A DNA stretch of 16,572 bases, taken from the UHGV virus genome UHGV-1353571, one strand, 5' to 3'. Position 1 is the first letter of the stretch, and every line of letters begins with the position of its first letter. The DNA comes from a virus. The notes beneath the pieces were generated by a model. It was given only the letters and a program-made list of their open reading frames with translations, ran no database searches and was not told the DNA's origin. Positions 1 through 16,572 of the stretch are shown one piece after another. Position numbers and translations under genes: made by a program.

Positions 1-60
1 TAACCTGACGCGGCGGAGAAGACTAAGCCTTTTGGGTAATATTAGCAAGACGTGATGGAA

Positions 61-86
61 AATAAAAAGCCATCCGAAGATGGCTT
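61..86 (-). terminator. Intrinsic terminator downstream of the gp32-like gene
   Basis: Seen in sequence: minus-sense stem AAGCCATC / GATGGCTT with a UUCG tetraloop, followed by a U-rich tract (TTTTATT). It starts about 5 nt after the alternative-frame stop at 92..94. UUCG-loop terminators are typical of T4-type phages. Confidence 0.6.
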
Positions 87-91
87 GTTGA

Positions 92-1101
92 TCAGTTAGA
101 CTTGAGATACTGCTCGAATTCGTCAATGGAAGCCGTGTTCTGGCATTCGGTTGAGTCTGAGCCTGCGACGGCGCGGCCTGTTGCTGTTTCAGGCTGTCTT
201 GAGCAGTTGGCTGATGTGTAGTCTGGGTACTAGGAGCATGAGCCATCGTGGCTGCACCACCTTCAACCAGAGGCTGGTCATCAGGGATTGCCAGAACTTT
301 GCGCAGGCGCTTTTCCAGGGAGTCGTAGTCTTTGAAGTTAGCCGGATTGAAGAATTCAAACAGGCTGTGCTCGCGAGACCAGACGTCTTCCATATACGCT
401 TCGTCATCACTCAGCGGGGCAGGGTTCTCCCACACCACCTTACTGAAGTTTGCCACCAGACCTTCCCAGTTCCCAAACTTCTTCTGCTCGCCAAAGAGCT
501 TCAGGTTCAGGTTGGCACCTTCCCACAGATCGAACGGATCGAATTTAGGGTCGGTTGGGAACTTAGGATTCTGCGCCTGATCCAGGATTTTCTTGATGGC
601 GTTACCAAATTCCAGCAGGAAGACCTTGCCGTTGTTTTCCGGTACGTTGACATCTTTGATCACCAGAATGTTAGCGTAGTATTTGGTGTCGGGTAGACGT
701 TTCTTCAGGATGTCCTTCAGCTTTTCGTCGTTCGTTTCTTTCTGCTGCGCCCACAGCGGACGGTCATGGTCGCGCACCGGATCGTCGTTGCCGAACGTCT
801 GAGGTGAGTTCTCAATGTACCATCCACCAGGTCCCTGGAACTGATGCTTCATGATCATGGCACAAGGGGTGAGGATCTGATCTTTATCGATCGTCCCTTC
901 TTCCTGTGCCTTGAGGTCTACCAGCGGGACTGGCAGGAAGCGGATGATGTTCTCGGAGATACCATCTTTATTCCAAGTCCATTTCCAGATGCGAGGATCC
1001 TTCTGGAAACCGGACTTCTGGCCTTGCTGTGCAAGACGCGCCTGCATAGCTTCAGTTTGCTGGCCACGGGATGCTTTCAGACGATCGAATAAATTACCCA
1101 T
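92..1101 (-). CDS. gp32: gp32-like single-stranded DNA-binding protein; the 3' end is uncertain because of an apparent frame discontinuity
   Basis: Hand translation from ATG at 1101..1099 (AGGAAA Shine-Dalgarno about 8 nt upstream) gives MGNLFDRLKASRGQQ...IRFLPVP...GWYIE...ILVIKDVNVPENNGKVFLLEFG...DLWEGANLNLKLFG...KVLAIPDD. This parallels T4 gp32 blocks recalled from memory (IRFLP, KWYIE, FVVKD, CPWEGANF, DKVLGFDD). The body frame has no stop down to position 1; another frame ends ...SIDEFEQYLKSN with TGA at 92..94 just before the terminator. The gene is missing from the ORF track because it lacks an in-frame stop inside the window. Confidence 0.75.
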
Positions 1102-4893: not shown

Positions 4894-5190
4894 GGCTTAA
4901 CTGTAAAATCGGTTAACACGCACTCTCTTTACCTGAAATTGCTATAATGGGCTTGTTCCCGAGTCATTTGTTGGTGTTTGTCTGTTTTGAATCAGATTGT
5001 CAGTAAAATACCATTTTTCAAGGAGTGTTCTGGGGTGTACAGTTATTGCCTCGCCCTTATGCCTCCATGGCATTGGAATGGTGCTGCCCGCATAGGGCGG
5101 TTTGATGAGCGAAGCGAATAGGATCGAATAAAACAAATAAAATGAACGGAAGCAGAGCTTCCTATAGTATATAAGGCAAAATCAGCTGCG

Positions 5191-5198
5191 CATAAATA
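5191..5198 (+). promoter_or_regulatory. T4-late-promoter-like box CATAAATA upstream of the gp5-like gene
   Basis: Seen in sequence: CATAAATA about 35 nt upstream of the ATG at 5233, a 7/8 match to the T4 late consensus TATAAATA. Baseplate genes are late genes in T4. Inference. Confidence 0.3.
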
Positions 5199-5232
5199 CC
5201 TTCAAATCCTTGTTTGACAACCGGAACTCAAT

Positions 5233-6843
5233 ATGTTAGACAATATGAGATGGTTTTACGGCACCGTTGAAGATGTCAACGATCCAGACCAAAACGGGCG
5301 CGTCGCCGTCCGCATCTATGGCGTACACACCGACGATCCCGTCCTCCTGCCTACAGACAAACTCCCATGGGCGAAGGTACTGATGCCTGCTTCAAATGCC
5401 TCCTCTGCTGGTTTAGGTTGGTCTCCAACGGGTATCATTCCTGGTACTGAGGTTATGGGGTTCGCCCTTGACGAAGCATACCAGAATTTACGCATCACCT
5501 GGACTTGGACTGGTTCAAGTCCTACTGATGGTGCCGACACAAACCCACTGGCTCTCGGGCAGGTCGTTCAATCTGTGGAACGTCAGGCGTACAACGCCGT
5601 CACTGACGTTCCTGTGAAACAAGAAGACGAACCACAACCAGATCCACAACCACCTGTTGGCGGGTATGATCCAGAGAAGTGGATGACAATCGCTCGTGGC
5701 GAATTGGGTATCAAGGAGTATGCCGGAAAGTTCAACAACAACCCGCGCATTATAGAATATCACAAGACAACCTCCCTTGGTGCTTCTGAAGATGAAGTGT
5801 CGTGGTGTGCGGCGTTCGTGGGTTGGGTTATGATACAGGCTGGATACACGTCTACACGCTCCGCTCTTGCCCGATCTTACCTTACATGGGGCACTCCACT
5901 GTCAGCACCACAATATGGCGCTATCGTAGTCTTCCGGCGTGGTAACAACCCTACATTTGGACACGTAGCGTTTGTACAGAAGTTCGATGCAAACTATGTC
6001 TGGTGTATTGGTGGCAACCAATCCGATTCAGTGAAGGTCAGTCGTTTCAGACGTTCTTCGGTCTTGGGTTATCGTTGGCCTGGTCCTGCTAACACAGCCA
6101 CAGCCGCGCCTGCGCAGCAGAATGGTAAATGGTCAGAACCTATCCCAGATCGTACTCCAAAGGAACAACCGACTCCGGCTCCTACTGGGCGAGTACAGGA
6201 TATTGACAACACTGGAGAAACTATGGTTCCGGCTGCGGGTGGCTCCAAATACCCGTACAATAACGTCATGGTGTCCCGAGCTGGGCATATTATGGAAGTG
6301 GATGACACCCCTGGTGGTGAACGTCTTCATTGGATGCATAAGTCTGGGTCTTACAAGCAAATGTTGCCGGATGGTGATGTGGTCAACAAGTCCGTCAAAG
6401 ACCACTATGACCTGACGATGTTCAACAAGCGTTATTATGTCGGCGGGGACCACAACCTGACGGTCAAAGGAACTGAAGTTCAGCGCAAGACAGGTGAGGT
6501 CTATCATTTGCATTCCAACAATTACTCCAACGTGGTTGCGGGCACAGCGCTGATGAAATTCAGTGACTTGGCGGAAATGCAAGCGCAGAATATTCTGCGC
6601 ATTATCTGCGAGACTCTGGAGGTCGGTGGGACATTGAAGGTTCCTAAGATTCTAACGACTGAGATAATCGCTGACAAACTGACTGTCGCTCAGACGATCA
6701 ATGGTAACATCATATATGCCGAAGGTGCTGGTCGCGCTTCTTCTCTGTCAGGTGCAACTCCTGCATCCCCTACGGGTCCGGGTGAGATTGACATCAAGGC
6801 AGAATTAAAAGACAATGGTGGTAATTTCGGCACCAAAGAGTAA
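5233..6843 (+). CDS. gp5: gp5-like baseplate central spike protein with an internal CHAP/NlpC-P60-type cell-wall peptidase domain
   Basis: The N-terminus (WFYGTVEDVNDPDQNGRVAVRIYGVHTDD...LPWAKV) resembles the T4 gp5 N-terminal OB domain. The central domain has the CHAP-type catalytic Cys/His context (SWCAAFVGW ... GHVAFV ... IGGNQSD). The C-terminal roughly 220 aa is unassigned. No T4-type lysozyme motif seen. Confidence 0.7.
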   Translation: MLDNMRWFYGTVEDVNDPDQNGRVAVRIYGVHTDDPVLLPTDKLPWAKVLMPASNASSAGLGWSPTGIIPGTEVMGFALDEAYQNLRITWTWTGSSPTDGADTNPLALGQVVQSVERQAYNAVTDVPVKQEDEPQPDPQPPVGGYDPEKWMTIARGELGIKEYAGKFNNNPRIIEYHKTTSLGASEDEVSWCAAFVGWVMIQAGYTSTRSALARSYLTWGTPLSAPQYGAIVVFRRGNNPTFGHVAFVQKFDANYVWCIGGNQSDSVKVSRFRRSSVLGYRWPGPANTATAAPAQQNGKWSEPIPDRTPKEQPTPAPTGRVQDIDNTGETMVPAAGGSKYPYNNVMVSRAGHIMEVDDTPGGERLHWMHKSGSYKQMLPDGDVVNKSVKDHYDLTMFNKRYYVGGDHNLTVKGTEVQRKTGEVYHLHSNNYSNVVAGTALMKFSDLAEMQAQNILRIICETLEVGGTLKVPKILTTEIIADKLTVAQTINGNIIYAEGAGRASSLSGATPASPTGPGEIDIKAELKDNGGNFGTKE

Positions 6844-6916
6844 GTTGGTATAAGTTTAGTGGCAGAGGGACAGCACGTCTCTCTGCTCCTTATAGGCATC
6901 CTGAGAGGATCGCGAA

Positions 6917-7297
6917 ATGAAAGAGTATAAAGATGTCGATCTGAAGTTCGGCATGCATCCAGTGACCAAAGATGTCACCATGAAATCAGGTGTGTATGCT
7001 GTCTTACAATCCGTGCGGAATATTGTTATGTCTTCAGTCGGGGACTGGCCCACTTATCCTGGGATCGGCGCGGGGCTTTATGGGCTGCTGGGTGAAAACA
7101 CGACACCGACTATCCAGGTAGATGTGAAGAACAAAGTAGAGGACGCCATCGCCCTGTATGAACCCAGAGCAGAGGTAGAAGAAGTCACGGTGAGTCTGTC
7201 AGAGGATTACCATTCTCTGGGCGTGACCATCACATTCTATGTGGTCAACAATCCAGATCCAATAACAGACACCGTGTGGTTGAAAAGGACGAATTAG
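6917..7297 (+). CDS. gp25: gp25-like baseplate wedge protein
   Basis: Translation ...GENTTPTIQVDVKNKVEDAIALYEPRAEVEEVTV...TFYVVNNPDPITDTVWL parallels T4 gp25 (...ENMTPLTADTVERNIESAVRNYEPRIDKLAVNV...RFSVIDNPDDIEQIKL). GAGAGGA Shine-Dalgarno about 7 nt upstream of the ATG. Confidence 0.75.
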   Translation: MKEYKDVDLKFGMHPVTKDVTMKSGVYAVLQSVRNIVMSSVGDWPTYPGIGAGLYGLLGENTTPTIQVDVKNKVEDAIALYEPRAEVEEVTVSLSEDYHSLGVTITFYVVNNPDPITDTVWLKRTN

Positions 7298-7644
7298 AGT
7301 TTCGTCCTGAATGCCGGAGCCACGACTAACATGAAGTGGCTCAATAACCTGAACATTTCTTTGCCGTTGAAGTGGTAGAGGATAATCATCGGCCTGACGT
7401 CAACCACTGATCCCTCCAGCTTCTTGTTCAACACAAATCTGGAACCCACACTGACCTGTCCGCGCTCTTCGTCTCCTGGTTTGTCGTAGACCACGCAACT
7501 GGTGGCATAACCGATTTGAGATCCATCCTCAGACCGCAAAGGCAGCATATGCCCTTCAGACATCAGATGATGCAGGTTTTGGTATAAACCTTTGTCTGGT
7601 ATGGGGACTGCCAGCTGCATTCTCAACTCTTTGTAATCTTGCAT
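7294..7644 (-). CDS. Hypothetical protein (116 aa)
   Basis: ORF-track ORF; GGAG about 8 nt upstream of the ATG at 7644. Its stop overlaps the gp25 stop on the opposite strand (TTAG). No family recognised. Confidence 0.5.
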   Translation of the reverse strand: MQDYKELRMQLAVPIPDKGLYQNLHHLMSEGHMLPLRSEDGSQIGYATSCVVYDKPGDEERGQVSVGSRFVLNKKLEGSVVDVRPMIILYHFNGKEMFRLLSHFMLVVAPAFRTKL

Positions 7645-7649
7645 GAGGA

Positions 7650-8111
7650 CTACTCCGCCAGGGTGATCACAACCATATTTAAGACTGTGTCGATAGCTCG
7701 GCCTGTTTCCTCTTCATGGAGGGTTTCGGCGCGGAGGTGCACGTCGGTGATGAAATTGTCGATGTGCATTGAAGTCAGATACGGGCGGTGTTGACTGACC
7801 GGGCGGTTGACCAGAACATAATTGCGCAATGTGTTGAAGTCCTGATGAGAGCACCCCGTTGTATCGATACGAAGGAAGCGTTCGTTGTGGCTTGTCTTCA
7901 ACTCAGTCACCTTGCCGAGGTAGACCAGAGGTCCATTGCGACCGATACGGAACATGACATCAACAACAGACTTGAAGATTTCGCGTTCAATCAGTGCGGT
8001 GGGTGACCAGCAGATCTCTTCTTTGTCGTCGGCGTACAGGGTGTCAATCACCAGAGGGAGTTGAATGTAACCGAAGTTGTGCAGTGGGTTGGTGAGTACT
8101 TTGTTTGTCAT
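7650..8111 (-). CDS. Hypothetical protein (153 aa); possible GIY-YIG-type nuclease (DenA/endonuclease II-like)
   Basis: ORF-track ORF. The segment VDVMFRIGRNGPLVYLGKVTEL...ERFLR loosely resembles the GIY-(x10)-YIG motif of T4 endonuclease II (VIYAIAINDELVYIGKT). In T4, denA lies next to nrdB. Weak, memory-based similarity. Confidence 0.5.
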   Translation of the reverse strand: MTNKVLTNPLHNFGYIQLPLVIDTLYADDKEEICWSPTALIEREIFKSVVDVMFRIGRNGPLVYLGKVTELKTSHNERFLRIDTTGCSHQDFNTLRNYVLVNRPVSQHRPYLTSMHIDNFITDVHLRAETLHEEETGRAIDTVLNMVVITLAE

Positions 8112-8187
8112 GATATAGTTCCCGCTTTCAATTTGTGGCGAATGCCAATGAATTACTGGGAAGTATAAGCGCAGGGATTATAGAAGT

Positions 8188-8210
8188 AAAGCCCCTCAAT
8201 GAGGGGCTTT
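8188..8210 (-). terminator. Strong GC-rich hairpin terminator after the nrdH-like gene (bidirectional-looking)
   Basis: Seen in sequence: AAAGCCCCTC-AAT-GAGGGGCTTT, a perfect 10-bp stem flanked by A and T runs, beginning 6 nt after the nrdH-like stop. Confidence 0.55.
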
Positions 8211-8216
8211 AGCTTG

Positions 8217-8443
8217 TCAGCGTTTAAGGCTGGCGGCGAGTCCATTAACGTCGGTCACGGTCTGGTCAGCGAGGACGATTACAGGCATCGACACGCGCGG
8301 CTTACCCGTCAACTGCTGAAGTTCTTCCAGCCGGTAATCTTTGTCCAGCTTGAGGATCTTGTGTTCCAGCCCTTTTCATTTTGCACAGTATTTTCGGCTG
8401 TTACACACTGAGCGCAACCTTGTTTGGAATAGATCGTAATCAT
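8217..8443 (-). pseudogene. nrdH: NrdH/glutaredoxin-like redoxin gene interrupted by a 1-nt frameshift
   Basis: Minus strand: AGGTGA Shine-Dalgarno, then ATG at 8443 giving MITIYSKQGCAQCVTAENTVQNEKGW... (CxxC active site like NrdH MRITIYTRNDCVQC). That frame stops 20 codons later; the -1 frame continues (K)GLEHKILKLDKDYRLEELQQLTGKPRVSMPVIVLADQTVTDVNGLAASLKR to a stop at 8217..8219. The span is 227 nt, not a multiple of 3. The frames switch at a homopolymer run (minus-sense AAAAGGG, plus 8370..8376). Confidence 0.6.
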
Positions 8444-8452
8444 TTCTCACCT

Positions 8453-9556
8453 TTAAGCGAATTTGAGGCCATCGGATACCGAACCAGTCAGTACACCCAT
8501 CAGATAATCAGGAGCTTCCGCTTCCTGCAACGCGTACTGCATTGCCTTATTATCTAGCCAGTCATTAATCCATGGGACTGGGTTCTCCTTGCGAGGTTCA
8601 CCGGGATATGGATGCCCGATAGCGCCCATCCGGTGGGTTGCCAGCCAGTCTACCATCTGATGAAGGATCTTGGCGTTCAGTCCCAGGATGGAACCGTCTT
8701 TGAATAGGTAGTTCGCCCACTCCTTCTCTTGATGAACTACGTCCAGGAACATCTGGGTCATCTCACCACGCAGTTCCTCACGGATGATTGCAAAGTCGGG
8801 GTCCATACCAGGCAGGCGGTTTAGCAGCGTCTGGGTCAGGATCAGGTGATCCTGCTCATCACGGGCGATCTGTCGAATGATTTTGGCATTGCCTTCCATC
8901 TTCTTCTGGAACTGTGTGAATGCCCAAGAGCATGCAAAGGACACGTAGAAGCGGATGCCTTCCAGTGTGTTGGCAGCAAACAGAGCACTCCAGAATGCGC
9001 GTTTGGCATTCATCAGATCTTCTCGGGTGAAGATGCGTCCGGCCATACGCATGCCACTGTACTGTACCATGTCATCGTAGTACACACTGATCTGGTGAGC
9101 GCAGTCCACGATCTCTACAACATCCAGTACGTGGTCAAACACGATACCTGGATCGTTCACAGTGTTGCGCAAAATGTGGGTATACGATAAAGAGTGAATG
9201 GCTTCCTGGCGCGTCCATTCAAGGACAGCAAACTGCATTTCAGGGGTAGACGCCCATGGACCAAACGCCTCGAACGGAGCCGCACCCTGGATAGAGTCCA
9301 GCATGGTCTGGCGCTTCAGGTTGCTGAAGTAGACATGTTTCTCTGCTTCGTTCAGAGTAGCGAAGTCTGCCTTGTCCTTGGTGATGTCCACCTCTTCAGG
9401 ACGCCAGAACTGGCTGAGACCTTTCTCATACCACTTCTGTACGAATGGCCAGGCCACGACATCGTAACGCTGGATGCTCACTGGGTCACCGAAGAACGGT
9501 AGACCAGTGTTGTCCGAGCTTGGGTCGAATACGGAGAATTGTTTCTGTTCGCTCAT
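8453..9556 (-). CDS. nrdB: Ribonucleotide reductase class Ia small (beta) subunit
   Basis: 367-aa ORF with an R2-family composition, uninterrupted (no intron). AGGAAAG Shine-Dalgarno upstream of the ATG at 9556. Immediately downstream of nrdA. Confidence 0.9.
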   Translation of the reverse strand: MSEQKQFSVFDPSSDNTGLPFFGDPVSIQRYDVVAWPFVQKWYEKGLSQFWRPEEVDITKDKADFATLNEAEKHVYFSNLKRQTMLDSIQGAAPFEAFGPWASTPEMQFAVLEWTRQEAIHSLSYTHILRNTVNDPGIVFDHVLDVVEIVDCAHQISVYYDDMVQYSGMRMAGRIFTREDLMNAKRAFWSALFAANTLEGIRFYVSFACSWAFTQFQKKMEGNAKIIRQIARDEQDHLILTQTLLNRLPGMDPDFAIIREELRGEMTQMFLDVVHQEKEWANYLFKDGSILGLNAKILHQMVDWLATHRMGAIGHPYPGEPRKENPVPWINDWLDNKAMQYALQEAEAPDYLMGVLTGSVSDGLKFA

Positions 9557-9575
9557 GTTTCTTTCCTGATTAATA

Positions 9576-9595
9576 AGGGGTGATCTCTCACCCCT
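9576..9595 (-). promoter_or_regulatory. Intercistronic hairpin between nrdA and nrdB
   Basis: Seen in sequence: AGGGGTGA-TCTC-TCACCCCT, a perfect 8-bp stem with a 4-nt loop, about 20 nt upstream of the nrdB Shine-Dalgarno. Candidate attenuator or processing site. Confidence 0.4.
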
Positions 9596-9626
9596 GATGA
9601 TATAACGGTAGTAGGTTTAGACCAAT

Positions 9627-11909
9627 TTATACAACACAGCTGTCACACTGAGTTTCCTCAGCCTGCTTCAGCTCTTCGTCTTCCTTGGCGTCCTTGTTTG
9701 TGTTGTAATACAGAGTCTTGCCACCCCACATATAGAACGACAGGATATCCTGCATCATCTTGGCGCGAGGGATCTTGCTGTCAGGGTACTTCTCTGGGTC
9801 ATACCACGTGTTGGTACTGATGGACTGGTCAACCCAGCGCTGGATGACAGCAGCGGTCTTCAGGTACTCAATACAGTCCAGGTCCCACTTGAGGTCATAC
9901 ATCGGTCCAAGGGTCTCAACGTCCGGGACGACCTGCTTATAAGTGCCGTCCTTGCTACCCTTGATGCTCACCAAGCCCTTCGGTGGCTCAATGCCGTTCG
10001 TTGCGTTGAGGACCTGTGAGGAGCTTTCGGTAGGGGCTACTGCCAGCAGGGTGGCGTTGCGGATACCATAGGTCTTCAGATTATCCTTCAACCCATCCCA
10101 ATCCAGCCCGTATGCCATCCCTTCTGGCTTCTTGCCATTTGGTAGGATATCAAGTGGAAGCGGCTGAAGGTCGGCGGTGACCTGCCCATTATTGTGGATG
10201 GTTCTGCGTTTACACGCCCCGAACTTCATAGCCAGACGGTTGGACGCCTTGACCAGATAGAAGTGCAGGTGTGCCATCCACGCATCCAGCATTTCAAGAC
10301 CAGCTGGTGAGCCATAGCCCGTGAAGTTCTTGGCCAGGAAGTGAGCCACGTTCACGATACCAACGCCCAGAGGACGATAGTCTTCAACAGCTTTACGAGC
10401 CTGAATCGCTGGATAGTCCTGATATTCCAACAGCATGTCCAGCGCAGACACCAACACGAACGCCACGTCTTCCATTTCGGTCGGGTCTTCGAATGCTGTC
10501 AGGTTGAAGGAAGCCAGGGTGCACAGAGCCACGCGCCCGTTTTCATCGTTGTACTGCTCAAACTCACGGGTCGGCAGGGCGATTTCTAAACAAAGATTTG
10601 AAGAATAAATCGTGTCTAGGTTGAATGGACTGTACTCATTCATGTGATCGACAAACGCGATGTAGATGCGGCCTGTGTCTGAACGCTGGTCTAACAGCAT
10701 CTGGAACACCTCTTCTGCCTGCAACTTCTTAGCACGAACCAAACCGGCATCAGCGGCCTTGATCATGTTCTCATACAGAGTACGGAACTTGTCAACGTCA
10801 GCGAAGTATGCTTCATACATTTCGCGGTTGTCTTTCGGGTCGAACAGATACAGAGGCTGCTTGGCAACCAGGCGTTCAAACATCACGCGGTTGATCTGAA
10901 TGCCATAGTCGATACGGCGTTCGCGGTTTTCTTCAGTACCACGGTTGTTCTTCAGAACAACAACGTCATCGAACTGGTAATGCCACAGAGGGATGTACGC
11001 TGTTGCTGCACCACCACGAATGCCGCCCTGAGAGCACGATTTGAGTGCCCCAGTGAGATACTTGATGAACGGGATCAGGCCTGTGTGAACCATCTCTCCG
11101 CCGCGAATAGGACTACCAATCCCACGGATTGCCCCGACATCGAAGCCGATACCCGCACGTTTGGACACATAGTCAACGATGGTCTTGGCTGTTGCGTTGA
11201 TAGAGTTCAGGGTGTCATCAGTCTTGATTAACACGCAGGAACTAAACTGACGAGTAGGAGTACGAACACCTGCCATAATCGGGGTGGGAAGACTGAACTT
11301 GCCTGTGCTGGCATATTCATAGAACTTTTTCACCATCTCCAGGCGGCTGTCTTTGTCCCAGTTAGAGAACAACGCCATGGCGATGCCCATGTACATGACC
11401 TGTGGGGTTTCGTAGAAGATCTTGCTGTCTTTCTTGGAACGGTCGCGCAGCAGATACTTCTCTGTCAGCTGGCCCATGGCCGCCCACGTGAAGTTCTTAT
11501 CGCGTTTGTGGTTAATGACATCGTTCAGCTCGTTGAACTCTTCGGTCGTGTAGAGATCAAGGAACTCACGATCGTACACGCGCTGTTTGATGTTCTTGAC
11601 GAAGATATCCAGCAGGTGAGGCGGCTTGTACTGGCCATAGACAGCCTTGCGCAGATCATATGACTTCAGACGAGCAGCCACATACTGGTAATTGGGTTTG
11701 TCTACAGAGATCAGCGAAGCCGCAGCCTGGATGAGGATATCCTGAATGCGATCTGTTCTCATGTTGTCGGTGAACTGAATCTTCGATGCAGCGATCACCT
11801 CTGACATTGATACACCAGTCAGTCCGTCACATGCGCGGTCTACGACTTCGTGTGGTTTCTCAATATCAAAGGGGACAGAAGATCCGTCACGTTTTATAAC
11901 GTTAATCAT
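9627..11909 (-). CDS. nrdA: Ribonucleotide reductase class Ia large (alpha) subunit
   Basis: 760-aa ORF with an N-terminal ATP-cone-like segment (MINVIKRDGSSVPFDIEK...) and a C-terminal Cys pair (CDSCVV) typical of NrdA. GAGGAA Shine-Dalgarno 5 nt upstream of the ATG. Confidence 0.92.
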   Translation of the reverse strand: MINVIKRDGSSVPFDIEKPHEVVDRACDGLTGVSMSEVIAASKIQFTDNMRTDRIQDILIQAAASLISVDKPNYQYVAARLKSYDLRKAVYGQYKPPHLLDIFVKNIKQRVYDREFLDLYTTEEFNELNDVINHKRDKNFTWAAMGQLTEKYLLRDRSKKDSKIFYETPQVMYMGIAMALFSNWDKDSRLEMVKKFYEYASTGKFSLPTPIMAGVRTPTRQFSSCVLIKTDDTLNSINATAKTIVDYVSKRAGIGFDVGAIRGIGSPIRGGEMVHTGLIPFIKYLTGALKSCSQGGIRGGAATAYIPLWHYQFDDVVVLKNNRGTEENRERRIDYGIQINRVMFERLVAKQPLYLFDPKDNREMYEAYFADVDKFRTLYENMIKAADAGLVRAKKLQAEEVFQMLLDQRSDTGRIYIAFVDHMNEYSPFNLDTIYSSNLCLEIALPTREFEQYNDENGRVALCTLASFNLTAFEDPTEMEDVAFVLVSALDMLLEYQDYPAIQARKAVEDYRPLGVGIVNVAHFLAKNFTGYGSPAGLEMLDAWMAHLHFYLVKASNRLAMKFGACKRRTIHNNGQVTADLQPLPLDILPNGKKPEGMAYGLDWDGLKDNLKTYGIRNATLLAVAPTESSSQVLNATNGIEPPKGLVSIKGSKDGTYKQVVPDVETLGPMYDLKWDLDCIEYLKTAAVIQRWVDQSISTNTWYDPEKYPDSKIPRAKMMQDILSFYMWGGKTLYYNTNKDAKEDEELKQAEETQCDSCVV

Positions 11910-11946
11910 GGTGTTCCTCGGGTTTGTTTACGCAGGTTTTATTATA

Positions 11947-11973
11947 CGCCGCCCTCGTAGATTGAAGGCGGCG
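11947..11973 (-). promoter_or_regulatory. GC-rich hairpin between phoH and nrdA
   Basis: Seen in sequence: CGCCGCC at 11947..11953 pairs with GGCGGCG at 11967..11973 (7 bp, 13-nt loop), 18 nt after the phoH stop. In minus sense it is followed by UAUAAUAAAA (TATAAT-like). Candidate terminator/attenuator plus promoter region for nrdA. Confidence 0.35.
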
Positions 11974-11992
11974 GGGAGGGTTGGCGAGTTAC

Positions 11993-12835
11993 TTAAATGT
12001 CGTACAGATCGTTGACTTCCAGCATCAGGCGGGTGAAGTCGCCGCGCCCGTTGCGGTCAGACTTGTCGAACTCGATGATACTGAACGGTTGAACCCATTC
12101 AGGGTACTCATCACCGACGCCAACACCATCGATCTTCAGGGTTCCGGCCTCCAGCTTGGCGTTGAAGTCGCGGAAGGAACTGACGTACTTTTCAAGGGCG
12201 CTGTCGCGCAGGCGCTTGTTGGACTGTTTGATGTCACCGTTGACGAAGATGTAAGTCGAGTCGGATGCGCGGGTCAGTAGGTTCTTCAGCTGCTCCATAT
12301 CACATTCCTGCGCTTCTTCAATGATCAGGAAGGTGTCGTCGAAGGTCATTCCCTTGATGGTCTCCAGATCCTGGATCTCAATGATCCGCTTCTCCCACAG
12401 ATAGTTGAAGAAACCGTCGCTACCTGTGTCAGTCTTCAGCACCTTCTTCAGCGTCTGAATCAGGGGCATCAGATATGGCATCAGTTTTTCGTATGTGTCG
12501 CCAGGGCGGAAGCCTGCAGTCTGGCCTGTTGGCAGCGGAGAGCGCGTGATGACGATCTTGCTGACCACTTTATCGATCAGGAGCTTGGCGGCGGCTGAGG
12601 CACCACAGTACGATTTACCTGTGCCTGCCGGACCGATTGCGATGGTGAGGTTTTCTTCAAGAGCAGATTGATACGCGAGGTTCTGATTTTCTGAGAGGCC
12701 ATGGAACGGAGCGATTCTGAAGTCACCTTTAGAGAACTTCATCCAGTCATCTTCTTTCTGAATTGTCTCTTTCTTACGTGCTGACTTGGTCTTGCCCGCT
12801 GGCTTCTTACTTACAACTTTGGTGGCAGATTGCAT
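11993..12835 (-). CDS. phoH: PhoH-like ATPase
   Basis: Walker A GPAGTGKSY and Walker-B-like IIEEAQ in a 280-aa ORF, with a Lys-rich N-terminal extension. AGGAAGG Shine-Dalgarno upstream of the ATG at 12835. Confidence 0.8.
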   Translation of the reverse strand: MQSATKVVSKKPAGKTKSARKKETIQKEDDWMKFSKGDFRIAPFHGLSENQNLAYQSALEENLTIAIGPAGTGKSYCGASAAAKLLIDKVVSKIVITRSPLPTGQTAGFRPGDTYEKLMPYLMPLIQTLKKVLKTDTGSDGFFNYLWEKRIIEIQDLETIKGMTFDDTFLIIEEAQECDMEQLKNLLTRASDSTYIFVNGDIKQSNKRLRDSALEKYVSSFRDFNAKLEAGTLKIDGVGVGDEYPEWVQPFSIIEFDKSDRNGRGDFTRLMLEVNDLYDI

Positions 12836-12914
12836 GGGAACCTTCCTATATCTCAGGGTGTCATCACCTCTAATTAAGGTGACAACCCCAGCATACCTGA
12901 GGATTGGATAAAGA

Positions 12915-12934
12915 AAAGGCCGTTTCCGGCCTTT
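12915..12934 (-). terminator. Intrinsic terminator after the endolysin gene
   Basis: Seen in sequence: AAAGGCCG / CGGCCTTT stem with a GAAA (GNRA) loop in minus sense, followed by a U-rich tract, starting 4 nt after the endolysin stop at 12938..12940. Confidence 0.6.
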
Positions 12935-12937
12935 GAG

Positions 12938-13732
12938 TTAACTGAAACTCTTGTATGCTGCTGCGAGCTTCTTGTCGTACTGGTTCTTGGCATACGCCGG
13001 ACCATTATAGCGCCGTGCAAATTCAGACCAGTTCTTGTCCTTCAGAGCCTGCCAGAGCTTGGCGTCAGCCTTGATGAACTTCACGAATGCCATCAAATGA
13101 GCACGTTCTCCTGTCAGGAAGTCGTTGAACATCTCCTTGGCGTTGGCATATCCACAGACCTGGCAGTTGAATCCCATGATCTGGAAGAGACCGTAAGAGG
13201 CGCTCTCGTACGCACAATCCTCATCAATGTTGATGGCCGCATGAAGTCGATCCAACTCCGCGTCGCCTCCCGTGTACCCGCCTGCGGAAGGACTGACCAA
13301 CGTCGGGTACATATGTCCCATGGCATTCGCCCGAGCCTGTCCGAACTTCGCCATCAGCTTTTTATACATGATGTGGCGCTCAAATAATGTCTTGATCTTA
13401 CCTGATTTGGTGAAGCCCGTGCCGCGCGACTCAACCTGATTCACCGCCTTGACAGAGGCAAGGTCAACACCAAGATCGTTAGCAGCATCAATCAGGTCTG
13501 ACTCAGTTAGATGATCCTGATGGGCGTCTCCGGCGTTGCGAATAGCATAGGAGGTCTTCGGACCCACGATACCATCAATGACAAGCCCCGCACCCGCCTG
13601 AACAGTCTTGACGGCGTTCTCTGTTGCCTTGCCAAAGATACCATCAGCGACGAGGGTGAAGCCGATTTTGTTGAGGCTATCCTGAAGTGCCTTCACTTCA
13701 GTGCCACGGTTGCCAAGTTTTAGAATGGCCAT
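12938..13732 (-). CDS. Endolysin: N-terminal peptidoglycan-binding domain plus C-terminal N-acetylmuramidase-like domain
   Basis: The N-terminus LKLGNRGTEVKALQDSLNKIGF...DGIFGKATENAVKTVQ fits the PG_binding_1 repeat pattern. The C-terminal region (...YESASYGLFQIMGFN...) resembles the phage muramidase family seen in modular Gram-negative phage endolysins. The preferred start is ATG at 13732 (MAILKLG...) with GGAGGT about 8 nt upstream, not the ORF-track start at 13750. Confidence 0.75.
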   Translation of the reverse strand: MAILKLGNRGTEVKALQDSLNKIGFTLVADGIFGKATENAVKTVQAGAGLVIDGIVGPKTSYAIRNAGDAHQDHLTESDLIDAANDLGVDLASVKAVNQVESRGTGFTKSGKIKTLFERHIMYKKLMAKFGQARANAMGHMYPTLVSPSAGGYTGGDAELDRLHAAINIDEDCAYESASYGLFQIMGFNCQVCGYANAKEMFNDFLTGERAHLMAFVKFIKADAKLWQALKDKNWSEFARRYNGPAYAKNQYDKKLAAAYKSFS

Positions 13733-13736
13733 AAGA

Positions 13737-13767
13737 AAATACCTCCACAATGAATGCAGAGGTATTT
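13737..13767 (-). promoter_or_regulatory. Hairpin sequestering the endolysin Shine-Dalgarno; overlaps a late-promoter-like TTTAAATA box
   Basis: Seen in sequence: 13737..13745 (AAATACCTC) and 13759..13767 (GAGGTATTT) form a perfect 9-bp stem with a 13-nt loop. In the minus-sense mRNA the 3' arm is GAGGUAUUU, which contains the Shine-Dalgarno, 4 nt before the AUG. Minus-sense TTTAAATA (plus 13763..13770) overlaps the 5' arm. Confidence 0.45.
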
Positions 13768-13916
13768 AAAGTGAAAGTGAACTACTCGAGGAGCTGGGGG
13801 AGACTTTGTTCTGAATGTGTCAGCAACCCAGAGAGCGCCTAAAGAGGATTGAATGACTGTGATCTCCTCCCAAGACCTGATAGGGGGAGTTGCCTCCCCT
13901 ATGTTACACGTCTGGA

Positions 13917-14405
13917 TTAGGCCAGTTTGCTCACCAGAGCTTCAACTGCGTCGGCGCTCAGTTTACCCATTTTGACGTACTGAGCTTTTGCTTCGCCGCC
14001 AACAGCTTTCACGATGTCGGTGTTGTCATATCCCTTCTTAGGGAAGACCATCACAGAGAAGGAACCGTTGTTCAGCGGGTTCAGCTGGATGCGACCTTTA
14101 CCGACTACGATGGTGCCGTAAGTTTCGGTGTTTGCTTCGACAATGTGGATGTCGTGACCCAGGTTTTTCAGCATACCAACTTTGTCGGCAGTCTTAGCAA
14201 CCACAGCTTTGTCAACCACAACCTGCTCTACCAGGGTGAAGCCGTTTGTCGATTTCACTTTACCGTTCAGCAGGTTCATGAAGGAAGTTTTACCACCAGT
14301 GAAGCCAGCTGCCTGAGCGATGCGGAACATTTCAACTTTAGCAACTTCGGTGTTCAGTTCGAAAGAGATGGTGCCGTTGGTGATCAGAGTTTTGGTAGTA
14401 GCCAT
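13917..14405 (-). CDS. Hypothetical Ala/Val/Lys/Gly-rich protein (162 aa), probably highly expressed; possible virion or internal protein
   Basis: Preferred start ATG at 14405 (MATTKTLITNG...) with GAGGAA Shine-Dalgarno. Own upstream AT-rich promoter region and downstream hairpin (13883..13900). The antisense ORF 13890..14528 has an implausible composition. Function unknown. Confidence 0.65.
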   Translation of the reverse strand: MATTKTLITNGTISFELNTEVAKVEMFRIAQAAGFTGGKTSFMNLLNGKVKSTNGFTLVEQVVVDKAVVAKTADKVGMLKNLGHDIHIVEANTETYGTIVVGKGRIQLNPLNNGSFSVMVFPKKGYDNTDIVKAVGGEAKAQYVKMGKLSADAVEALVSKLA

Positions 14406-14478
14406 GATGTAATTCCTCATAATGTAGTTGGTGCGTTTCACTTTTCATTCGGCGGTGTGTTGTCGCCCTATGTGAACT

Positions 14479-14507
14479 ATAATAGTGCATCATTATTGAA
14501 GAGTAAA
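14479..14507 (-). promoter_or_regulatory. Sigma70-like promoter candidate for the 162-aa gene
   Basis: Minus-sense TTTACT, 17-nt spacer, TATTAT, about 75 nt upstream of the ATG at 14405, within an AT-rich block containing TTTTAAAA palindromes (14521..14550). Pattern match only. Confidence 0.3.
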
Positions 14508-14549
14508 GTCTTTTTCAATAATTTTTAAAATATTTTGAAGTATTTTAAA

Positions 14550-14570
14550 AGGCCTCATTCGACGAGGCCT
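14550..14570 (-). terminator. Intrinsic terminator after the primase operon
   Basis: Seen in sequence: AGGCCTC / GAGGCCT, a 7-bp stem with a 7-nt loop, followed in minus sense by UUUUAAAAUA. It lies about 30 nt after the stop of the 68-aa gene at 14599. Confidence 0.5.
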
Positions 14571-14598
14571 GGAGGGAGGTGATGTGAAGTAAAAAGTT

Positions 14599-14805
14599 TT
14601 AGCTCGGGCGAAATCTTACAAACTCGCGAGCCAATTCGGCCTGTTCATCACTGATTGGTTCCCCATGGAAGTCCACCTGACCATTCTTCCAGCCGTGGAT
14701 GAAACTCGGGGACTCTTCCCCAGATAGGACATACCCCTCACGAGATTTCAAGTACCCCCGCACGATCTCTCCGTCGTCCAGTTTGTTCAGTTCTTCTAAC
14801 GTCAT
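14599..14805 (-). CDS. Hypothetical protein (68 aa), translationally coupled to the primase gene
   Basis: Its ATG at 14805..14803 overlaps the primase TGA at 14804..14802 (ATGA). No family recognised. Confidence 0.55.
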   Translation of the reverse strand: MTLEELNKLDDGEIVRGYLKSREGYVLSGEESPSFIHGWKNGQVDFHGEPISDEQAELAREFVRFRPS

Positions 14806-15860
14806 CGCACTTTCCTCAGTTCAGCGAATTGTAATGATGCGGCCATACCTTGGTAAACGTTCTTGGCGATCAGCTTCAGGAGGTCTTGTATGGACATGTT
14901 GCCCTTTGATGGCATGACCATGTCGTTGATATCCTTCCAAGGAACGTCTGGTGGGAACAGTACAACTTTGACACCTTTATCTATCATCTTCTGAATACCG
15001 TCACACACCTGCGGGTTCCGGTACTGATTATCAGGGATATAAATGTCACCCTTCACGCTCAGTAGATCAGCGTCGGCCGATGCAAGACAGTTGGGTAGGA
15101 ACAGGCTGTCAATCGGACCTTCCACAACCAGCTTGGTCTTGTGAATGTTCACCCGGTCTTCACCATAGACCTTAGTGTCTTCATCCTTGGGCTTGACTGT
15201 TGCGTAGCGCAGTGTCGCATTCTTGTCGAATGCACGCCCCTGAACGATCTTCATGCGACCATCCTGAGTCCAGAATGGGATTACCAGGCGCTCGTCATCG
15301 GGGATCTTCAGCTGCTTCTCAGGGTTCGTTTCGAACTGGAGTAGATCCTGGCGGAAGTGCTGTGTGTAATACAGGAGGGACAAAGTGCTCTCCGGCAGTC
15401 CACGCCACTGTACGTACTGTCGAGCCTTATGGTCAGGCGGTAGCAGATCAAGCCGTAGCATATTGCCGAGGAGGCTCTCGTCGCGTTTTGCCGCCACTGA
15501 GCCAATACGGGCGGTCTGTGTCAGCTTTGGTAACGGCTTCAGGGAAGGAAGTGGTCTGCCCGACGTATCACCCAGCAGACGGAACTTCTCCATGTTGTAC
15601 TCTGTTGAGAGGCGTTCGTCGAACTTCTTCAGCCAGAACTCAAATGACCAGCCATTCATCTGGTTGCAGTTGTGGCACTTGAACCGGAAGCAGTCATGAT
15701 CCCGATCATAGAAGAAGTATCCACGGCGCTTGTTAGCAGACTTCGTGGAGTCACCGCACAGAGGGCAACGGAAGTTCGCAACAGAACCCACGCGCTCCCA
15801 CTTGAACTTGTCAAGGCGAGGTGACAAGTTGTTAATAAATTGCTCGTCAAGAAATTTCAT
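14802..15860 (-). CDS. gp61: DNA primase, T4 gp61-like (zinc-ribbon plus TOPRIM)
   Basis: Zinc-binding segment FRCPLCGDSTKSANKRRGYFFYD...CHNCN parallels T4 gp61 FRCPVCGDSKTDQNKARGWYYGD...CYNCN. TOPRIM motif VVEGPIDSLFL matches T4 VLEGPIDSLFI. Length 352 aa versus about 342 aa for T4 gp61. Confidence 0.85.
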   Translation of the reverse strand: MKFLDEQFINNLSPRLDKFKWERVGSVANFRCPLCGDSTKSANKRRGYFFYDRDHDCFRFKCHNCNQMNGWSFEFWLKKFDERLSTEYNMEKFRLLGDTSGRPLPSLKPLPKLTQTARIGSVAAKRDESLLGNMLRLDLLPPDHKARQYVQWRGLPESTLSLLYYTQHFRQDLLQFETNPEKQLKIPDDERLVIPFWTQDGRMKIVQGRAFDKNATLRYATVKPKDEDTKVYGEDRVNIHKTKLVVEGPIDSLFLPNCLASADADLLSVKGDIYIPDNQYRNPQVCDGIQKMIDKGVKVVLFPPDVPWKDINDMVMPSKGNMSIQDLLKLIAKNVYQGMAASLQFAELRKVR

Positions 15861-16131
15861 TTACCCACCCGGTACGGAAAAGGATAGATTTATACTCTTC
15901 CACCATGTCCTGGTCGTAATCAGTTTGACGGGAATACGATTGGGCTTCAGCACAATCAGCGCCAAGTTCCACAGAAGCCATAGCGGCTTGCATGTTCAAT
16001 TTATTTTTGTACTCAGAAACCATCCCATGTCTTTCCAAATATTCACTTGCCTGGATAAATCGTTTTTCTCTGGCGAACATTAGACCATAGTTGATTTCTG
16101 AAAACTCTCTGTTGTATGCTTTTAATGACAT
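15847..16131 (-). CDS. Hypothetical protein (94 aa)
   Basis: ORF-track ORF; ATG at 16131 with AGAGGT Shine-Dalgarno about 6 nt upstream; overlaps the primase start by 14 nt. No family recognised. Confidence 0.55.
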   Translation of the reverse strand: MSLKAYNREFSEINYGLMFAREKRFIQASEYLERHGMVSEYKNKLNMQAAMASVELGADCAEAQSYSRQTDYDQDMVEEYKSILFRTGWVNEIS

Positions 16132-16140
16132 AATGACCTC

Positions 16141-16455
16141 TTAAATCGCTGGCCTCTGGAACACTTCGGTCACAGTATAGTCTACACCACGACTTTGAGC
16201 TATACACAGTTGGCGCCAAGCCCCATACAGGATATTCTGTTCCCCGGCAGTGTTGCGCTCAAAGTGGGCGAAGCCGTCGAGGAGTTTCATGTAGCTGCGC
16301 ATAAGCTGGGTAACGGTTCTTCCTCTCTTGATCTGTTCATCAAGGTACTTCAGAGCACTCTTGACGATATCAAGACACTGTGCTATCAGACGATCTACAA
16401 ACTGAAGCAGCTGTCGTAAGTCAATACGAAATAAAGGCATATAATTTTTGCTCAT
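16141..16455 (-). CDS. Hypothetical protein (104 aa); start uncertain
   Basis: ORF-track ORF tightly packed with downstream genes. The ATG at 16455 has only a weak GGTGA Shine-Dalgarno, and the start lies 22 nt from a divergent plus-strand ATG. Alternative start at 16440. Confidence 0.45.
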   Translation of the reverse strand: MSKNYMPLFRIDLRQLLQFVDRLIAQCLDIVKSALKYLDEQIKRGRTVTQLMRSYMKLLDGFAHFERNTAGEQNILYGAWRQLCIAQSRGVDYTVTEVFQRPAI

Positions 16456-16477
16456 TATTCACCAAAAGGAAAGGACA

Positions 16478-16572
16478 ATGAGCAAAATCTTTATCCCGTC
16501 ACACCGCGAAGGATGTGAGATCGCGGCCAACTACCTGCGCGGTCGCATGAACTGCGGCGCTGTCTTCATCGA
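16478..16572 (+). CDS. Partial hypothetical CDS running off the 3' end of the window
   Basis: ATG at 16478 preceded by AAAGGA (7-nt spacing), open to the window end (MSKIFIPSHREGCEIAANYLRGRMNCGAVFI...). All three minus frames contain stops here. Only 31 codons visible. Confidence 0.35.
   Translation, partial: MSKIFIPSHREGCEIAANYLRGRMNCGAVFI

Follow-up and report, generated by a model that had tools for sequence, protein, structure and literature searches.

Two private single-base insertions, most likely artefactual, split the glutaredoxin gene downstream of nrdB in a contig of an Ag3-like phage

Results

A glutaredoxin-family gene closes the nrdA-nrdB unit

The window analysed here is a stretch of viral DNA of 16,572 nt (UHGV virus genome UHGV-1353571). 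Its identity of ~98% over 16.3 kb to vB_CECAV_050, AV101, RPN242 and other phages identifies it as a segment of an Ag3-like phage (Ackermannviridae, Aglimvirinae). The genes for the two subunits of a class Ia ribonucleotide reductase (RNR), nrdA and nrdB, lie directly upstream of a glutaredoxin-family gene (grx) on the same strand, and grx is the last gene of this nrdA-nrdB-grx unit (Table 1). The initial annotation had described a glutaredoxin-like coding region here, downstream of nrdB and overlapped by an antisense ORF, and its position and length are borne out, as are its place after nrdB and the antisense ORF. The 760-aa NrdA of the relatives matches the ATP-cone (PF03477), PF00317 and PF02867. 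At the position of grx, vB_CECAV_050, AV101, RPN242 and the other ~98% relatives carry an intact gene annotated as a 74-aa 'putative glutaredoxin'. The true grx is therefore 225 nt long (74 codons plus stop), and the window copy has a surplus of two bases.

Table 1. Features at and around the glutaredoxin locus of the window
Feature	Position	Strand	Remarks
Glutaredoxin-family gene (grx)	8217..8443	-	227 nt, against 225 in relatives; reading frame lost beyond codon 18
nrdB, class Ia ribonucleotide reductase small subunit	8453..9556	-	367 aa, intact; relatives' annotations and PF00268
nrdA, class Ia ribonucleotide reductase large subunit	9627..11909	-	760 aa, intact in the window
Ribosome-binding site AAAGGTGAG	8446..8454	-	ahead of ATG 8443; read from the sequence
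GC-rich hairpin AAAGCCCCTC-ATT-GAGGGGCTTT, probable terminator	8188..8210	-	6 nt 3' of the grx TGA
Antisense ORF	8199..8411	+	from the ORF list; overlaps grx
Private insertion no. 1	8389	-	minus GAAAAT[A]CTGTG; plus CAG[T]ATTTT; outside any homopolymer
Private insertion no. 2	one T of plus 8373..8376	-	minus AAAA, against AAA in all relatives, before GGG

The gene starts with an ATG at 8443 and ends with a TGA, the frame end lying at 8217. Its ribosome-binding site is strong, overlaps the stop codon TAA of nrdB (8455..8453), and is unaltered with respect to the closest relatives (invariant columns 8-20 of a six-relative alignment). The hairpin beyond the stop codon is a probable terminator of the nrdA-nrdB-grx unit, and the equivalent position is annotated in LIMEstone1 as a 'putative factor-independent terminator'; a simple scan for terminators missed it in the window, because its T-tract is interrupted. 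Directly past this hairpin lies a sigma-70-like promoter match (TTTACT-17-TATACT, 9/12; minus strand, 8162..8190) that is placed to drive the downstream 153-aa gene (7650..8111). Elsewhere in the unit, the nrdA-nrdB spacer of RPN242 is enlarged by a ~300-bp insertion that holds an extra 294-nt ORF, the hypothetical gp074 (L009, 9868..10161); this ORF, which may be a small mobile or accessory one, is absent from the window (spacer 9557..9626), from vB_CECAV_050 and from AV101.

Two insertions, not one, put grx out of frame

Three-frame translation shows that the frame from ATG 8443 reads MITIYSKQGCAQCVTAENTVQNEKGWNTR... and stops after 44 codons, giving as its full product MITIYSKQGCAQCVTAENTVQNEKGWNTRSSSWTKITGWKNFSS, while the C-terminal part, ...KGLEHKILKLDKDYRLEELQQLTGKPRVSMPVIVLADQTVTDVNGLAASLKR, is held in a different frame that ends at 8217. 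That the two parts lie in different frames had been recognised from the outset, but the accompanying explanation, a single 1-nt frameshift at a homopolymer, does not survive comparison with the relatives. Alignment with six relatives spanning three genera, and later with 22 more loci (28 loci compared in all), resolves the lesion into two separate 1-nt insertions, 13-16 nt apart (Table 1). The first, outside any homopolymer, comes after codon 18 (Asn18) and displaces the true frame by +1. The second adds a further +1 shift and creates the A4G3 run (CCCTTTT on the plus strand, 8370..8376), which is present where it had been reported.

The two insertions also change what can be taken as genuine coding sequence. 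Only the first 18 codons of the N-terminal part, MITIYSKQGCAQCVTAEN, are authentic, not the 24 assigned to it previously; the string TVQNEK that follows arises when the codons for LCKMK (true residues 19-23) are read out of frame, and LCKMK itself is found in the third frame. Repair by one extra base, with a 76-codon ORF as its outcome, had been anticipated, and this is the wrong direction, since the locus has two bases too many. When both extra bases are deleted, the coding sequence is identical at 225 of 225 positions to that of RPN242 (gp072) and to that of a sister contig, CYGL01000298.1; as written, it is out of frame. The grx locus thus differs from these two by 0 substitutions and 2 indels.

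Alignment to the closest phage genomes, a check proposed with the initial annotation, finds grx intact in all of them and the insertions private to the window: those at 8389 and in 8373..8376 are absent from 28 of 28 compared loci. When viral, genome and metagenome collections were scanned with a pattern that tolerated 0 or 1 extra base at each insertion site, neither insertion turned up in any other sequence; the matches were one IMG/VR contig and one contig of the metagenome collection, both insertion-free, and the genome collection returned 0. Exact protein look-ups gave no record of the truncated 44-aa product, nor of the window's NrdA or the 104-aa ORF near its end; the exact NrdB occurs on two recorded contigs, CYGL01000298.1 and one of 10-20 kb, the latter probably the window itself, which would make the window a whole draft contig. 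By tblastn, the repaired protein finds ~270 Ackermannviridae records at at least 80% identity, with the gene uninterrupted among the matches listed. A further set of 20 independent assemblies (Logan, ENA, NCBI) also carries the gene intact, and in 5 of the first 10 of these it is nucleotide-identical to the repaired window copy. A dN/dS among relatives of 0.09-0.22 indicates that grx is under purifying selection.

The sole length variant found is an in-frame ACC duplication (LADQ to LADHQ) that yields a 75-aa glutaredoxin in Logan SRR22355802 (L026, 869..1096). We considered this allele as the predicted 76-codon repair and rejected it, as the duplication is unrelated and the allele carries neither insertion. 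The duplication adjoins strand 4, and the Pfam match of this allele is merely weak.

The repaired protein belongs to the glutaredoxin family

A profile match to the glutaredoxin family had been proposed as a check on the repaired protein, and it was found: the 74-aa sequence matches Pfam Glutaredoxin (PF00462) at 32.8 bits against a cut-off of 22.9, over residues 2-60 and profile positions 1-58 of 60. It also matches phrog_22 'thioredoxin domain' (1.6e-14), and the relatives annotate the gene downstream of nrdB as a putative glutaredoxin. The 44-aa product as encoded, at 14.9 bits, falls below the PF00462 cut-off. Against the NCBIfam glutaredoxin equivalogs, the repaired protein scored below every cut-off.

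The best solved relative is E. coli Grx1 (1EGO; E = 0.0046, a weak similarity), and the likeness to Grx1 (1EGO/1EGR) consists of a small thioredoxin fold, an N-terminal CxxC after strand 1 and a conserved proline. The CxxC motif of the window protein, C10-A-Q-C13, follows strand 1 and opens helix 1, lies within the authentic 18 codons and aligns to the CPYC of 1EGO; its active site is thus CAQC, whereas that of Grx1 is CPYC. The active site of T4 NrdC is CVYC. In the phmmer alignment, S-M-P(53), invariant in the six relatives, matches the T-V-P of Grx1 that holds the cis-proline, while the Gly-Gly segment of Grx1 aligns to T-D-V and is not conserved. The gene, once repaired, encodes a glutaredoxin-family protein of thioredoxin fold. 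It resembles most directly the glutaredoxins of Ag3-like phages (phiSboM-AG3 orf00088, ACO94314.1; vB_EcoM-RPN242 gp072, UHS65700.1), which share its position after nrdB, its ribosome-binding site and its terminator hairpin.

Grx1 and the T4 NrdC glutaredoxin are hydrogen donors for class Ia RNR, and the window protein is like them in being encoded with, or serving, an enzyme of this class. Because grx holds a conserved last place in the nrdA-nrdB-grx unit, and given the role of Grx1 and T4 NrdC, we infer from position and family that it would serve NrdAB, the class Ia enzyme of the phage, as thiol hydrogen donor.

The glutaredoxin part of the initial identification therefore stands, but its NrdH label does not. 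With NrdH-redoxins the protein has in common a length of ~75 aa, a glutaredoxin-like sequence, a C-x-Q-C close to the CVQC of NrdH, and linkage to an RNR operon. The WSGFRP[D/E] motif is a defining feature of the NrdH family, and it is absent from the 74-aa sequence and from the six relatives. Scores against the specific models fall below their cut-offs (TIGR02194, 24.6 bits against 85.75; PRK10329, 19.3 bits against 131). Finally, the partner of an NrdH-redoxin is the class Ib NrdEF (nrdHIEF), whereas the RNR encoded beside grx is a class Ia NrdAB with an ATP-cone.

A sister contig and the spectrum of differences

The sister contig CYGL01000298.1 (GCA_001292545.1; L011 and L012) is 99.947% identical to window positions 5100..16350, over 11,253 nt. 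Judged by this match, it is effectively a second sequencing of the same phage and the nearest thing to a resequencing of the locus. The two sequences differ by 1 substitution and 5 single-base indels. Two of the five indels are those in grx, private to the window, and the grx of CYGL01000298.1 is intact. The other three are private to CYGL01000298.1 and fall within a 46-nt stretch of its nrdA, at the equivalents of window positions 11412, 11448 and 11458 (L011, ~7846..7895), where one base is missing and two are extra; the gene is called there as 587 aa, against 760. At all three positions the window agrees with every other relative. On this evidence, the nrdA cluster of the sister contig bears the same error signature as the window.

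We compared this spectrum with the natural variation of the group. Published and IMG/VR relatives together show 774 coding substitutions and 1 coding frameshift indel; set against this baseline of 774:1, the ratio of 1 substitution to 5 frameshift indels between the window and CYGL01000298.1 is strongly skewed (Fisher p = 1.5e-11).

The left end of the sister contig is unusual in another respect. Positions 1..1535 of L011 are a UvsW-type helicase region that in AV101 lies ~45 kb from the gp5 region, and this region joins abruptly, in a non-collinear junction, at the equivalent of window position 5100. The junction would reflect either a misassembly or a genome rearrangement.

Both ends of the window depart from the relatives

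The 8 coding frameshift indels private to the window all fall into two tight clusters, one of six indels (1..160) and one of two (8373..8389). Those of the first cluster are 1-nt indels at about 11, 24, 37-39, 44, 59 and 140, and this segment has no substitutions with respect to the relative L010. The C-terminus of the tail-tube protein (gp54-like), NLTAAEKTSLLGILQDVMGK in relatives, is spread over two frames with ~5 hops in 60 nt, and the conserved C-terminal tip of the single-stranded DNA-binding protein (SSB), NTASIDEFEQYLKSN, is out of frame; the SSB ORF is missing from the ORF list because the shifted ORF runs off the start of the window. Since the tail-tube protein and SSB are essential, positions 1..160 cannot truly represent the genome of a viable phage, and the segment looks like a low-quality contig end.

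Within the SSB gene (minus strand, window ~156..161), the relatives also vary in the copy number of an in-frame 6- or 12-nt GACTGA/GTCTGA repeat, so that the C-terminal linker holds more or fewer SQ/TQ dipeptides (...SQAQTQSQP... or ...SQAQTQP...). Unlike the 1-nt indels, this is genuine natural variation in length.

At the other end, the last 225 nt of the window (16348..16572) are inverted with respect to all relatives. Collinearity with RPN242 stops at RPN242 56862 (window ~16351), and the segment matches RPN242 57391..57169 on the opposite strand, ~300-530 bp beyond. As a result, a 203-aa gene annotated as 'DNA repair protein/hypothetical' is shortened to a 104-aa ORF (16141..16455). The inverted end would be either a fold-back or chimeric contig end or an inversion of ~529 bp.

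Origin of the split

Three origins had been suggested for the split gene, namely sequencing error, a real pseudogene and slippage-dependent expression; the first is now favoured and the last finds no backing. Working from assembled sequences, we infer that the split is an assembly or sequencing artefact and not biology (probability roughly 0.8). The locus would then be an ordinary, conserved grx of Ag3-like Ackermannviridae phages at the end of an nrdA-nrdB-grx unit, and both surplus bases (that at 8389 and one of those in 8373..8376) would be consensus errors in a low-quality draft contig, whose first 160 nt are riddled with errors and whose last 225 nt are inverted and non-collinear. In the phage itself, the sequence at this place is most likely GAAAATCTGTGCAAAATGAAAGGGC, and the protein encoded is most likely the intact 74-aa MITIYSKQGCAQCVTAENLCKMKGLEHKILKLDKDYRLEELQQLTGKPRVSMPVIVLADQTVTDVNGLAASLKR. 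An artefact is favoured because the insertions are private, the sister grx is intact, the spectrum of differences is skewed, the indels are clustered, and the other cluster in the window is non-viable. The expression signals are moreover untouched, and a decaying pseudogene would be expected to carry substitutions too.

Several points weigh against an artefact. A homopolymer miscount does not account for the insertion at 8389, and a simple 454 or Ion Torrent error therefore does not explain both insertions. The grx cluster sits in the middle of the contig, a region in which read depth is normally sufficient. On the precedent of T4 nrdC, a phage can probably do without its own glutaredoxin if a host thioredoxin or glutaredoxin serves the RNR, so a real knockout of grx would be tolerated.

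This last point leads to the main rival reading, in which grx is a real and very recent pseudogene: the isolate would carry both insertions, would have lost its own glutaredoxin, and would use host thioredoxin or glutaredoxin for its RNR. We consider this improbable, but by a good distance the stronger of the two alternatives. The sequence as given does hold both insertions and yields a 44-aa product without most of the fold, the gene is plausibly non-essential on the T4 precedent, and one complex mutational event could produce two nearby insertions. Yet with 0 substitutions in grx and 1 in 11.25 kb against CYGL01000298.1, there was almost no time for two independent indels to arise, and the natural variation of the family runs at 774 substitutions to 1 frameshift indel, its sole natural length variant being in-frame. 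The same contig also carries an obviously non-viable cluster of indels in its tail-tube and SSB genes, and the allele is found in no other assembly examined. If the insertions were nevertheless real, they would amount merely to the loss of a dispensable accessory gene.

Slippage-dependent expression, in which a ribosomal -1 shift on A_AAG_GGC (minus strand, 8377..8371) would yield a 75-aa glutaredoxin, is very improbable. The heptamer formally fits X_XXY_YYZ in the zero frame and stands at the frame junction, as in -1 programmed frameshift sites of the dnaX type, and the conceptual -1 product, with TVQNEK in place of LCKMK in helix 1 (junction ...TAENTVQNEKGLEHK; the zero-frame 44-mer continues ...NEKGWNTR), still scores above the Pfam Glutaredoxin cut-off, at 29.1 bits. 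Unlike the dnaX-type sites, however, this heptamer is private to one sequence and has neither conservation, nor a downstream structure, nor an upstream stimulator. It owes its existence to the second private insertion, all relatives reading AAAGGG in an uninterrupted ORF, and the two-frame arrangement occurs in 0 of 28 aligned loci and in none of the ~270 tblastn matches listed. Folding of the 97 nt that begin at the slip site gives an MFE of -24.4 kcal/mol (z = +0.30), 119 of 200 shuffles being as stable, and no Rfam recoding element matches. A search of publications, judged by titles and abstracts, found none on recoding of a glutaredoxin gene. Transcriptional slippage needs runs far longer than four A. 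A recoding signal would also have to arise in a genome separated by only 1 substitution per 11 kb from another in which the ORF is plain. The conjunction that this reading needs, in which both insertions are real and a working 75-aa glutaredoxin is made by a -1 slip on the newly made A_AAG_GGC, seems to us even harder to credit; if true, it would be a case of a frameshift lesion rescued by a second insertion that created a slippery site by chance.

Consequences for annotation

On the preferred reading of an artefact, the case matters mainly as one of quality control. The underlying grx is already known and routinely annotated, and its split is most probably no real feature. Annotation should present it as an intact, known glutaredoxin of the Ag3-type phages, or else flag the coding sequence as frameshifted or of low quality; neither a pseudogene nor a recoding event should be reported. 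The window and CYGL01000298.1 both show clustered single-base indels and non-collinear ends, and other oddities, such as the truncated SSB, the scrambled end of the tail-tube gene and the 104-aa ORF at 16141..16455, should likewise not be over-interpreted.

Annotation of this gene is itself inconsistent among the relatives. In phage A221 (ON862890.1; L002, 481..642), the glutaredoxin is annotated from an internal start, as a 53-aa protein without the CxxC motif, and the DNA of this phage holds the full 225-nt grx ORF intact.
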